DNA of 64,000 nucleotides from Gammaproteobacteria bacterium (GCA_965238175.1 CBDEGZ010000003.1:1504001-1568000); one strand, 5' to 3'. Shown: positions 4,326 to 7,289, numbered from the stretch's first letter. Notes: generated from the letters alone by a model not told the origin. Made by a program: numbers and translations.

Positions 4326-7289
4326 ATGAACGGAGTAACCGGAGCAGGGCCAGGACCAAGCGTATACAATCTACCCAAAGATGGACAAGGAGGCTTTGCA
4401 ACCAAACAAGGAGGCTTTGCAACCAAAGAGGGTCGCAACGGACCAGGAATAGGGCCAAATGGGCAAGCTGGATCATTTTACTCAGGCTTTATCCCAGCAG
4501 GACAACCAGGAACACCAGGATCACCAGGATCACCAGGACGACCAGGAGTCGGATCACCAGGATCACCAGGACGACCAGGAGTCGGATCACCAGGATTACC
4601 AGGACGACCAGGAACACCAGGAACACCAGGAACACCAGGACAACAAGGGGTCGGACCAACAGGAGCACCAGGAGCACCAGGAAACCCAGGATTTGGAAAC
4701 CCAGGAACCCCTGGTCAGAATGGAAACCCTGGACAGCCAGGTCAGCGAGGACCAACAGGATATGGAAACCCAGGAACCCCTGGACAGAATGGAAACCCTG
4801 GAAACCCAGGTCAGCTTGGACCCCAAGGATTCCGAGGAAACCCAGGTCAGCTTGGACCCCAAGGATTCCGAGGAAACCCTGGTCAGAATGGAAACCCTGG
4901 ACAGCCAGGTCAGCGAGGACCAACAGGATATGGAAACCCAGGAACCCCTGGACAGAATGGAAACCCTGGAAACCCAGGTCAGCTTGGACCCCAAGGATTC
5001 CGAGGAAACCCTGGTCAGAATGGAAACCCTGGACAGCCAGGTCAGCTTGGACCCCAAGGATTCCGAGGAACCCCTGGTCAGAATGGAAACCCTGGACAGC
5101 CAGGTCAGCGAGGACCAACAGGATATGGAAACCCAGGAACCCCTGGTCAGAATGGAAACCCTGGACAGCCAGGTCAGCGAGGACCAACAGGATATGGAAA
5201 CCCAGGAACCCCTGGACAGAATGGAAACCCTGGAAACCCAGGTCAGCTTGGACCCCAAGGATTCCGAGGAACCCCTGGTCAGAATGGAAGCCCTGGACAG
5301 CCAGGTCAGCGAGGACCAACAGGATATGGAAACCCAGGAACCCCTGGACAGAATGGAAACCCTGGACAGCCAGGTCAGCGAGGAGCAACAGGATACCCTG
5401 GTGCTCCTGGTATAGGAACCCCTGGTCGGAATGGAACCCCTGGTCAGCTTGGACCCCAAGGATTCCGAGGAAACCCTGGTCCGCAAGGACGAACAGGATA
5501 CCCTGGTGCTCCTGGTATAGGAACTCCTGGTCGGGATGGTCAGCCAGGAGCCCAAGGAGCCTCTGGTCGGGATGGTCAGCCAGGAGCCCAAGGAGCCTCT
5601 GGTCGGAATGGTCAGCCAGGAGCCCAAGGAGCCTCTGGTCGGGATGGTCAGCCAGGAGCCCAAGGAGCCTCTGGTCGGAATGGTCAGCCAGGAGCCCAAG
5701 GAGCCTCTGGTCGGGATGGTCAGCCAGGAGCCCAAGGAGCCTCTGGTCGGGATGGTCAGCCAGGAGCCCAAGGAGCTACAGGTGCTACAGGTGTAGGACA
5801 AATAGGTGCTTCAGGCGAAGGTTTCATCGAATGGTTCACTAGAGTGGAGGGTGATCAAAATGGAGATGACGTAATAACTAGAGAAGACGTCAGAATCTGG
5901 TTAAGAGGTGATAAAGGTGACACTGGAGCACCTGGAGCAACTGGAGCAACTGGAGCAACTGGAGCAACTGGAGCAACTGGAACACCTGGAGCAACTGGAC
6001 AAGCCGGAGCGAAAGGTGACAGAGGTGATAGAGGTTACAATGGAGCACCTGGAGCAACTGGACAAGCCGGAGCGAAAGGTGACAGAGGTGATAGAGGTTA
6101 CAATGGAGCACCTGGAGCAACTGGACAAGCCGGAGCGAAAGGTGACAGAGGTGATAGAGGTTACAATGGAGCACCTGGAGCAACTGGACAAGCCGGAGCG
6201 AAAGGTGACAGAGGTGATAGAGGTTACAATGGAGCACCTGGAGCAACTGGACAAGCCGGAGCGAAAGGTGACAGAGGTGATAGAGGTTACAATGGAGCAC
6301 CTGGAGCAACTGGACAAGCCGGAGCGAAAGGTGACAGAGGTGATAGAGGTTACAATGGAGCAACTGGAGCAACTGGAGCACCTGGAGCACCTGGAGCAAC
6401 TGGACAAGCCGGAGCGAAAGGTGACAGAGGTGATAGAGGTTACAATGGAGCACCTGGACGAGATGGTGAGCGAGGTGAGCGAGGTGAGCGAGGTAGGAAT
6501 GGCTACAATGGTCGAGATGGTCAGCCTGGTAGGAATGGCGGACATGGCGGATATGGCCCAGTAGGTCGTCCGGGACCAAGTGGTCCGAGTCCAAGTGGTC
6601 CGTATCCAAGTGGTCCGAACCCAAGTGGTCCGAGACCAAGTGGTCCGAACCCAAGTGGTCCAGGTACAAGCCCAACACGCCCGACAAGCCCGAGCCCAGC
6701 ATGTGCAAATGATAATGGTAGGTTTAGTCAGCAGCTGGAACAGCTTACACAACTTCTTAGCCGACTCACTGAATTACTCAGTAGTTTCTCAGGTGGCGGG
6801 AATGGCGGGAAAGGTGGTGGTTACCCAAGCACAGGTGGTGGTTACCCAGGATCAGCAGGACCAGCAGGATCGCCAGGTGAAAGAGGTTACCCAGGATCAG
6901 CAGGACCAGTAGGACCAGTAGGACCGCGAGGTTACAATGGTATGGACGGTAGGGACGGCATGATAGGACCACCGGGACCAGCAGGACCACCGGGACCAGC
7001 AGGACCAGCAGGACCAGCAGGACCAGCAGGATCGCAAGGTGAAAGGGGTTACCCAGGACCAGCAGGACCAGCAGGATCGCAAGGTGAAAGGGGTTACCCA
7101 GGACCAGCAGGACCAGCAGGATCGAAAGGTGGCGGTGGTGGCTACTCTCATAGCACGGGGAGATCATCAACATTTGATACAATAAATAATGTACTGAGAA
7201 CCTTGGCGCCTATTTCGAATGTGATCGAAGGTTTGATCAATGCGTTCAGCGGCGGTGGCTCGCGGTCTCATAGTGGGGGTGGTTATTAA
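4326..7289 (+). CDS. Collagen-like (Gly-X-Y) repeat protein, 987 aa, putative T3SS-secreted/harpin-like
   Basis: AAGGAG RBS. Long G-X-Y tracts in several repeat families, no Sec signal or anchor, an EF-hand-like insert and two Leu-rich amphipathic segments flanked by Gly/Ser runs. Confidence 0.9.
5529..5780 (+). repeat. 36-bp tandem repeat x7 (GR[D/N]GQPGAQGAS)
   Basis: GGTCGGRATGGTCAGCCAGGAGCCCAAGGAGCCTCT repeated nearly perfectly. Confidence 0.9.
5985..6455 (+). repeat. 63-bp tandem repeat ([21 protein letters not shown]), 6 contiguous copies plus 1 offset copy
   Basis: Identical units with a 63-bp period, visible in both DNA and translation. Confidence 0.9.

Follow-up and report, generated by a model that had tools for sequence, protein, structure and literature searches.

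A collagen-like protein without Sec features encoded in a type III secretion island of a gammaproteobacterium

The 64,000-nucleotide stretch of Gammaproteobacteria bacterium DNA analysed here (GCA_965238175.1, CBDEGZ010000003.1:1504001-1568000), referred to below as the window and corresponding to G000:C3:1504001-1568000 in our genome and contig numbering, carries on its plus strand, at 4326-7289, the gene of a long, basic, collagen-like protein of 987 amino acids (93 kDa, pI 10.3). The protein is free of Sec features, and its gene is embedded in, and co-inherited with, an island encoding a non-flagellar type III secretion system (NF-T3SS; T3SS, type III secretion system), next to the gene that occupies the needle position. 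The reading we favour, to which we give a probability of roughly 45%, is that this protein is a lineage-specific cargo or extracellular fibre of the island's NF-T3SS, trimeric and about 200 nm in length.

A collagen-like gene in a secretion island

The open reading frame (ORF) begins at an ATG eight bases 3′ of a GGAG ribosome-binding site, and only 10 codons separate this ATG from the upstream in-frame stop, therefore a hidden signal peptide on the protein is impossible. The Pfam Collagen family (PF01391) matches the protein in nine stretches with an E-value of 8.5e-96 and 314 bits, against a cut-off of 27.2. We counted 245 Gly-X-Y triplets in 13 runs, the longest of 76, and the repeats make up three quarters of the protein's length; glycine contributes 310 of the 987 residues (31%), proline 141 and cysteine one, at residue 793. 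All 13 PF01391 matches found genome-wide lie inside this ORF, making it the sole collagen-repeat gene of the genome, and the stop-free repeats also account for the long ORFs seen in other reading frames, which are artefacts. A preliminary description of the window had reported a Gly/Pro/Ser-rich, non-hydrophobic N-terminus, a single cysteine and no Sec signal, anchor, LPXTG motif or autotransporter domain, and all of this held on closer analysis. The N-terminus reads as quoted there, with no Glu and one Asp in its first 30 residues. No hydrophobic signal or membrane segment is present in the protein (maximum 19-residue Kyte-Doolittle mean 1.12), an LPXTG-like motif is absent from its sequence, and searches of Pfam and NCBIfam returned collagen-type models only, with no autotransporter or other Pfam family.

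The gene lies at the right end of a 24-kb island (C3:1487775-1511870) that reaches from thrC to an hslR-like gene (Table 1). SctV, SctN, SctD, SctJ and SctQ score over their NCBIfam equivalog cut-offs, and the island is a bona fide NF-T3SS. Its sctJ is the first gene of an sctJ-K-L-Q-R-S-T-U operon, its YscE-type ORF matches T3SS_needle_E with 36 bits, and its 207-residue protein has a C-terminus that looks SctI-like by eye and is a candidate for that role.

The closest relatives of this SctJ are found in Thiothrix and other Thiotrichaceae (55-61% identity), where the clusters read, in order, a short sctC, sctD, a gene for 65-71 residues, a gene for 62-79 residues, a tetratricopeptide repeat (TPR) gene, a gene for about 190 residues and sctJ. 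The proteins of 65-71 residues match Pfam T3SS_needle_E in eight of eight cases (best E-value 2e-9), and the TPR protein is of the CdsG/YscG type. The classical needle gene order is yscD-E-F-G-(H)-I-J; because the flanks match the yscE and yscG types, the gene between the E-type and TPR genes holds the SctF position. In the genus studied here the E- and G-type chaperone genes adjoin each other, and the F-position gene has moved away from them to a place directly upstream of the collagen-like gene. The protein in question, p74, matches small ORFs of Thiotrichaceae by phmmer with E-values of 5.3e-7, 7.1e-7 and 3.6e-6 (small database), and members of the family have a C-terminal '..SQQLAN' in common. 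Its AlphaFold2 (AF2) model is one long helix with a predicted local distance difference test score (pLDDT) of 80.9, and the family has 19 members in a library of 5.8 billion clusters, whose names are placeholders at most. We infer a needle role for p74 from gene position, not from likeness to a known SctF.

Another cargo-like gene appears in 7 of 30 related sctJ loci outside the genus (L026, L027, L029, L031, L034, L036 and L037, at about 4.7-6.2 kb in each). It encodes a TGL transglutaminase-domain protein of 340-431 residues (Pfam E-value 1.3e-25 for the one scanned) that has no signal peptide, and a Ser/Thr/Gln-rich N-terminus followed by a short Gln/Leu-rich helix. From these features it is likely a T3SS cargo of the Thiothrix clusters, and its helix recalls those of the collagen-like protein, as a resemblance only.

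A second species of the same genus (G002) has the complete island, STAS gene through p81b, at the same place between thrC and hslR and in the same order. Identity between the two species is 72-89% for the core proteins, 81% for the short SctC, 64% for SctD and 59% for the SctI-like protein. In G002 a collagen-like gene sits in the same slot, after a single p74-type gene, and its product has 11 Ser and 11 Gly among the first 30 residues. In its C-terminal part, collagen leads into helix 1, GGGQGT runs rich in Gly come next, and a helix rich in Gln, Met and Leu precedes the Gly-rich tail. Outside the repeats only the helix 1 region can be aligned between the two species, with 42% identity over 53 columns and F, SQQ, Q, QLL, T, LS and S invariant; the sequence of helix 2 is not conserved. 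On this comparison the architecture is kept and the sequence is not, the common layout being an N-terminal Gly/Ser region, collagen, helix 1, a Gly-rich part, helix 2 and a Gly-rich tail, and the collagen-like gene is the fastest-evolving gene of the island.

Across the seven genomes of the genus, an island-type sctJ is present in two; elsewhere the matches are frames of FliF size, except in G005, where there is no match. PF01391 matches over the cut-off occur in the same two genomes, and the other five are without island or collagen-like gene. This co-occurrence is among kin genomes and not independent, and may reflect a single gain or loss. The hslR gene is present in the four island-less genomes examined (G001, G004, G005 and G006), and in G004, G005 and G006 it is followed by fliL-fliM, with other genes on the far side. 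Two candidate matches in this survey were rejected: a sub-threshold collagen match in G001 comes from an unrelated 18-bp repeat read in a different frame, and a match to p81 in G003 (E-value 0.0086) lies in an unrelated gene. At the corresponding locus of G006 (L057, on G006:C3; about 2757-3435 within the locus), the gene beyond hslR begins like Cas9, with an N-terminal RuvC-type motif recognised by eye.

Architecture and relatives of the protein

The 245 triplets correspond to a predicted length of about 210 nm (0.286 nm per residue, 0.86 nm per triplet), spread over three collagen segments (Table 1). The breaks in segment 1 mostly consist of one residue missing at '..GYG NP G..'. At the DNA level, segment 1 contains tandem repeats with units of 69, 132 and 201 bp and an array of 36 bp x 6.9 at 98% identity, segment 2 contains a 63-bp x 6.3 repeat at 99%, and a further tandem repeat of 45 bp x 2.7 stands at 98%. 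Such near-identity of the repeats (98-99%) indicates that the arrays expanded recently. Among surface collagen-like proteins already known, the repeat number varies and sets the fibre length, and very recent tandem repeats like these are typical of length-variable surface fibres. Hydroxylation of the prolines of segment 1, which are mostly in the Y position, is conceivable from the sequence; as a separate observation, the genome has three ORFs of about 200 residues with a P4H-type 2-oxoglutarate-Fe(II) oxygenase domain (PF13640), at G000:C3:1360799, 515795 and 974536.

Between segments 1 and 2 lies a 36-residue non-collagen insert, which the preliminary description had overlooked, as it had the atypical character of the T3SS. 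The canonical EF-hand loop pattern describes a 12-residue loop; as a regular expression it matches residues 510-522, with seven matches in the 2,107,293 six-frame ORF residues of the genome. Pfam EF-hand_6 matches the insert weakly (E-value 0.035, 14.3 bits, cut-off 25). A single-sequence AF2 model gives a beta-hairpin rather than helices (mean pLDDT 63, hairpin 77-82), and a Foldseek search with this low-confidence model found no match at E ≤ 0.001. The insert is real and non-random, with the EF-hand-type loop and the hairpin as candidate folds.

The two amphipathic helices of the preliminary description were recovered where it had placed them, each followed by GGG runs (at residues 823, 830 and 837 after helix 1, and at 976 and 984 after helix 2). 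They have the top 18-residue hydrophobic moments of the protein, 0.57-0.61. We modelled three copies of residues 790-987 together with three controls. The trimer model scored 0.36, and the best of the three controls 0.00. In a calibration made on two copies, not three, 21 of the 30 proteins solved as same-chain pairs scored this high, against none of the 23 solved as single chains. The trimer runs share at least 76% of their contacts, with a partner pLDDT of at least 67. The triple-helix interface of the model covers residues 837-936, with Gly-to-Gly contacts every third residue, and helix 1 makes contacts between copies at residues 800, 804, 807, 811, 814 and 818 (F, L, L, L, L, L). The 4-3-4-3-4 spacing of these contacts is a heptad a/d pattern. 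Cys793 touches between copies, and helix 2 lies outside the confident interface.

The model thus supports helix 1 as a putative three-stranded coiled coil that stands beside the triple helix and would set its register. A pass of this kind shows likeness only, since solved structures contain many triple helices and coiled coils. The earlier proposal that the helices act as a trimerisation nucleus, a membrane-inserting tip or both is kept in part: helix 1 is favoured by the model, the heptads and its 42% conservation, whereas helix 2 falls outside the interface and is unconserved.

Harpins such as HrpZ, HrpN and Hpa1 are Gly-rich, Cys-poor, acidic and heat-stable proteins of the Hrp T3SS of plant pathogens. 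The preliminary description had likened the protein to them, and one alternative reading is accordingly a T3SS-secreted, harpin-like helper in which the collagen part is a spacer and the Leu/Gln-rich helices enter or disturb the membrane or wall of a target. The analogy is fair in composition (31% Gly and one Cys, with no Sec signal), in the short amphipathic Gln/Leu-rich helices followed by Gly runs, and in gene position next to a pilus- or needle-like subunit gene, as in the hrpA-hrpZ arrangement; the TGL proteins of 7 of the 30 related loci likewise share a Ser/Thr/Gln-rich N-terminus and a Gln/Leu-rich helix. Membership of the group, however, fails on sequence and charge. Residues 1-59, 756-840 and 935-987 match no Pfam family, harpin included, at E ≤ 10, and the pI of 10.3 contrasts with acidic harpins. 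Moreover, three quarters of the protein is collagen repeat, helix 1 is buried in the modelled coiled-coil interface, the maximum hydrophobicity is low, and no plant association, host or target is known. We consider this reading improbable.

Searches for relatives were extended to the individual modules. In NCBIfam, SclB reached 287 bits (cut-off 325), SclA 204 (cut-off 400) and Lcl 99 (cut-off 500), all aligned to the repeats and all below their cut-offs. A word-based search covering proteins of 542-1728 residues gave 111 candidates for residues 786-842, none of them at E ≤ 0.01, and two candidates for residues 488-531, with no match. The helix 1 profile, run exhaustively with HMMER over 1.84 billion representatives, returned two matches, neither credible: each is a very large, unrelated repeat protein that owes its score to the sum over 5-11 repeats. 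Metagenome scans confirmed 0 of 108 pattern matches with the p81 profile and 0 of 591 with the helix 1 profile, the ESM Atlas gave collagen clusters only (scores 0.82 or less), and tblastn of the helix 1 region against 72,556 plasmids found no match. In the libraries searched, the non-collagen modules are without credible relatives.

A resemblance seen by eye, in which helix 2 would imitate the C-terminal helix of the SctF-position proteins, was ruled out. In an ungapped BLOSUM comparison of helix 2, the three small proteins rank 8th, 53rd and 74th of about 18,750 ORFs. The hidden Markov model of the SctF-position family misses the collagen-like protein at E ≤ 100, and hhalign finds neither of its helices related to that family, with a probability of 0.1-0.3% for helix 2. 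The helix 2 of G002 is also unrelated to that of G000.

The best PHROG matches of the protein are to tail-fibre families (for example phrog_6320, 2e-72), which raises the reading of a phage collagen-like tail-fibre remnant, or another mobile element, with no link to secretion. Remnants of insertion sequences (IS) nearby and the GC content of the gene (0.49-0.52 versus about 0.40) could be taken in the same sense. The strong PHROG matches, however, cover the collagen repeats only, with just the weak phrog_30509 and phrog_1125 matches extending a little into the helix 2 region. No phage gene was found in the island or the window, the gene is syntenic in two species, and a raised GC content is expected from Gly and Pro codons. 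We regard a phage or mobile origin as barely credible, and the earlier statement that the protein has no phage-fibre tail stands.

Export, assembly and competing readings

The preliminary description had proposed a Sec-independent substrate linked to a T3SS, and this proposal gains strong support from context: the island, the needle-like neighbour, the collinear arrangement in G002 and the co-occurrence within the genus all point the same way. Export of the collagen-like protein by the T3SS is what we infer from these data. The T3SS would recognise the unfolded chain, which carries no Sec signal, by the disordered N-terminus rich in Gly, Ser and Pro and would export it, and p81a and p81b may keep the chain unassembled in the cytoplasm. 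After export, three chains would join via helix 1, which according to the model would register and nucleate the adjoining Gly-X-Y segments. The product would be a trimeric rod of about 210 nm with Gly/aromatic-rich ends, hinging at the 36-residue insert with its EF-hand-type loop and at the PSGP linker. Its role would probably be contact or adhesion at the end of, or alongside, a needle-like filament of the SctF-position protein.

A number of findings weigh against this reading, the first of them concerning the machine itself. The SctC of G000 (C3:1492203-1492829) is a protein of 208 residues with N0 and N1 domains only and without a secretin pore. The NPTH autocleavage motif is missing from SctU (C3:1499211-1500260), and no ruler, gatekeeper, tip or translocon gene was recognised in the island. 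With an N0-N1-only SctC, no NPTH and none of these genes recognised, the machine may therefore not reach the cell exterior. As for the protein, no collagen-like ORF occurs in any of the 30 related sctJ loci outside the genus (flanks up to 10 kb), and it is therefore not a general part of this type of T3SS. The evidence comes from two related genomes, and in the second of these the repeats are of other types (GDTGAK.., GTN..) and a contig break within them splits the gene. Helix 2 has no role supported by the trimer model or hhalign, and the p81 proteins, for which we propose a chaperone-like function, match no family in Pfam, NCBIfam or PHROG and no chaperone family.

The short SctC and the SctU without NPTH are features of the related systems as well. 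Among the 20 related loci with an SctC-like ORF in the flank, SctC is short in 18 (168-368 residues, ending with the N-domain match), and full-length secretins (599 and 672 residues) occur only in loci of Sulfidibacter and of a Desulfobacteraceae metagenome-assembled genome. The genome of G000 has six secretin-domain ORFs outside the island and none inside. The NPTH motif is missing from 16 of 18 aligned SctU proteins, those of G000 and G002 included ('DYAN/DYTN'), and the two that keep it belong to the same two loci with full-length secretins; as a control, the flagellar FlhB of the window has NPTH. This pattern suggests a T3SS clade without substrate switching. An observation in its own right is a protein of 289 residues at G000:C3:1800127-1800456 (L067), whose N-terminus resembles a signal peptide and which has part of a Secretin domain (38 bits); it lies far from the inspected secretion clusters. 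According to Abby and Rocha (PMC3459982), secretin recruitment was a late step that happened several times, and some Myxococcales systems are without core genes; a 'needleless' T3SS is likewise described for Myxococcus (PMC12075869). Our literature search, judged by title and abstract, found no published account of the Thiothrix-type T3SS.

A ruler of needle length, analogous to SctP or FliK, would be one way to account for a long and repetitive protein that has no signal peptide and whose gene adjoins a needle-subunit-like gene, in an island where no SctP was recognised. The protein, however, has no T3S4/FliK-type C-terminal domain (Pfam; C-terminal pieces at E ≤ 10), the NPTH motif of the SctU partner is missing, and a Gly-X-Y period strictly kept through 245 triplets, combined with a coiled coil, indicates that a triple helix and not a single-chain spacer was selected for. 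This makes a ruler very unlikely.

More weight, if still on the unlikely side, goes to an ordinary surface or secreted collagen-like adhesin that leaves the cell by another route, with a type I C-terminal signal or otherwise, and is merely carried on the island. The missing N-terminal signal peptide, the amphipathic helix within the last 40 residues, the EF-hand-type loop and the few cysteines would all suit such a protein, as would the T3SS of the island being without a secretin pore domain. Known bacterial collagen-like proteins moreover leave by routes other than a T3SS; Lcl, for example, is reported to use type II secretion (PMC3460888, PMC6617341). On the other hand, Pfam finds no RTX repeats in the protein, which is basic and not acidic, and no ATP-binding cassette (ABC) or membrane fusion protein (MFP) exporter was found among the window and island genes scanned. 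In both species the gene is also tightly and collinearly linked to that of the SctF position, and the five island-less members of the genus do not have it.

Returning to the NF-T3SS cargo that we favour, the reading can be carried further, to a picture in which the Thiothrix-type T3SS, with its N0-N1 SctC, its SctU without NPTH and no ruler, gatekeeper or translocon recognised, is no injectisome but a dedicated exporter of one or a few structural cargoes. In this genus it would have been adapted to build a collagen 'pilus', a triple-helical fibre of about 200 nm on or beside a needle-like filament, with helix 1 as a knot tied after export and a calcium-sensitive hinge in the middle. We offer this extension as speculative and think it rather doubtful.

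Neighbouring features and known systems

Table 1. Features of the collagen-like gene, the genes around it and the secretion island. Coordinates are nucleotides of the window; aa, amino acid residues (in the rows for parts of the protein, residues of the collagen-like protein).
Feature	Coordinates	Strand	Remarks
N-terminal region, aa 1-58	4326..4499	+	Gly/Pro/Ser-rich, non-hydrophobic; candidate T3SS signal region
Collagen segment 1, aa 59-491	4500..5798	+	135 triplets, 10 short breaks; Pro mostly in Y position
Non-collagen insert, aa 492-527	5799..5906	+	36 residues; EF-hand-type loop at aa 510-522 (nt 5853-5891)
Collagen segment 2, aa 528-755	5907..6590	+	76 uninterrupted triplets, charge-rich
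PSGP-type Pro/Ser-rich linker, aa 756-799	6591..6722	+	carries Cys793
Helix 1, aa 800-822	6723..6791	+	three heptads; predicted three-stranded coiled coil
Gly-rich spacer, aa 823-838	6792..6839	+	GGG-rich, between helix 1 and segment 3
Collagen segment 3, aa 839-940	6840..7145	+	34 triplets
Helix 2, aa 950-975	7173..7250	+	amphipathic, central Pro kink
Gly-rich tail, aa 976-987	to 7286	+	after helix 2
Island, plus-strand part	upstream of window	+	in order: STAS gene, sctV, sctN, sctO, short SctC, sctD, YscE-type ORF, CdsG-like TPR protein, 207-aa protein, IS transposase
Island, minus-strand part		-	from IS towards collagen module: 245-aa HExxH protein, LuxR-type response regulator, sctU-T-S-R-Q-L-K-J
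Island, module divergent from sctJ		+	p81a, p73, decayed duplicate, p74, hairpin, collagen-like gene, p81b
sctK, 3′ part	1..447	-	Pfam YscK 2.9e-12; whole ORF 242 aa, continues beyond window
sctJ, inner-membrane ring lipoprotein	434..1318	-	Pfam YscJ_FliF 6.4e-30; TIGR02544 216.5 bits (cut-off 162)
p81a	1621..1866	+	acidic, 81 aa, pI 4.6; paralog of p81b; G002 ortholog 57% identical
p73	2097..2318	+	second copy of SctF-position small helical protein, G000-specific; family profile E 8.8e-20
Decayed copy of p81a 3′ half	2658..2772	+	direct repeats D1/D3, 85-94% identical to 1735-1850
Duplicated intergenic leader upstream of p74	3597..3802	+	copy of 1893-2032; direct repeats D2/D4, 85-94% identical
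p74, SctF-position homolog	3902..4126	+	small, all-helical, acidic; directly upstream of collagen-like gene
Terminator-like hairpin and T-run	4222..4247	+	after p74
Two tandem 20-bp repeats	4274..4312	+	directly before ribosome-binding site of collagen-like gene; unique in 3.35-Mb genome
Palindromic hairpin, 13-bp stem	7333..7361	.	after collagen-like gene
p81b	7628..7873	+	acidic, 81 aa, pI 4.4; G002 ortholog 80-81% identical
hslR-like S4-domain gene	7983..8429	-	right island border; flagellar fliL-M-N-O-P-Q-R-flhB beyond, then chemotaxis genes

The collagen-like gene is flanked by p81a and p81b, whose products have conserved 'DLTLKQLL' and 'IVD.LIK.IG' ends; searched against the sequences of the PDB, the p81 and p74 profiles found nothing below an E-value of 0.2. 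The candidate role of the p81 proteins as YscE-type needle co-chaperones was rejected, with a hhalign probability of 2% against the T3SS_needle_E-positive family and the true YscE-like ORF elsewhere in the island. The p81a-p73 module is duplicated in G000 (1735-2032 versus 2658-2772 and 3597-3802) and single, in a simple arrangement, in G002. In G000 about 0.8 kb at 2800-3597 interrupts the second copy, and short ORFs in this stretch resemble a putative transposase remnant. The upstream region of G002 has a single stretch resembling the 20-bp repeat; that this repeat is a shared operator was ruled out, since it is unique in the genome. Contigs of a single public run contain 88% of the 31-mers sampled from window positions 1300-8000; that run may be the source sample, so it does not count as independent. 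No RNA data set with this sequence was listed among the public runs.

Three further genes are recorded as side observations. In the island, at G000:C3:1497832-1498569 on the minus strand, the 245-residue protein has a signal-peptide-like N-terminus and an HEVFH sequence (HExxH), matches nothing in Pfam or NCBIfam and is 83% identical in G002. Elsewhere in the window, also on the minus strand, 62773-63963 encodes an FG-GAP repeat protein with a weak TcdB_toxin_midN match and 31869-32549 a Sel1-repeat protein.

Streptococcal Scl1 and Scl2, Legionella Lcl and Bacillus BclA have, like the protein described here, long Gly-X-Y regions with variable repeat number and a non-collagen element thought to trimerise the chains, as we propose for helix 1. 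The differences are that our protein has no signal peptide, LPXTG motif or C1q-like head, that it is found in the context of a T3SS island, and that the short coiled coil proposed to trimerise it stands between two collagen segments. A parallel to this layout is found in collectins and scavenger receptors, in which a collagen stalk is followed by an alpha-helical coiled-coil neck, so that collagen stands beside a three-stranded coiled coil of few heptads as in our model. Those proteins, however, are eukaryotic and Sec-dependent and end in a lectin head, whereas our protein continues into another collagen segment and a second helix, and there is no sequence relation.

The EspA filament and the tip or extension proteins of T3SSs are T3SS-exported extensions of the needle with coiled-coil helices, encoded near needle genes. 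They are, however, helical polymers without collagen, and profile comparison finds the helices of the collagen-like protein unrelated to the SctF-position family. The Myxococcales secretin-less or 'needleless' systems (PMC3459982, PMC12075869) resemble the island as non-canonical NF-T3SSs without core injectisome features; unlike them, the island retains the N0-N1 part of SctC together with SctI-like and SctF-position genes and chaperones of the E and G types. In print, the only link between a collagen-like sequence and a T3SS that we found in the main texts of the non-subscription literature is Bucl4 of Burkholderia, where the T3SS-2 export-gate protein SctT contains a collagen-like stretch (PMC4565658). 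Bucl4 is an inner-membrane apparatus protein (Bac_export_1), whereas ours is a long, soluble, cargo-like fibre.

The bacterial collagen-like proteins known to us take Sec-dependent routes to the surface or belong to spores and phage tails. If the protein does not leave by the T3SS, it is still an orphan collagen-like protein with an unexplained export route. If T3SS export is true, collagen chains would be threaded out singly and zipped together outside the cell from a short coiled coil, and the compact, hydroxyproline-free combination of coiled coil and collagen would be a design for protein engineering. It would also give a handle on the function of a poorly known and widespread T3SS clade that lacks both the secretin pore and the SctU switch motif.

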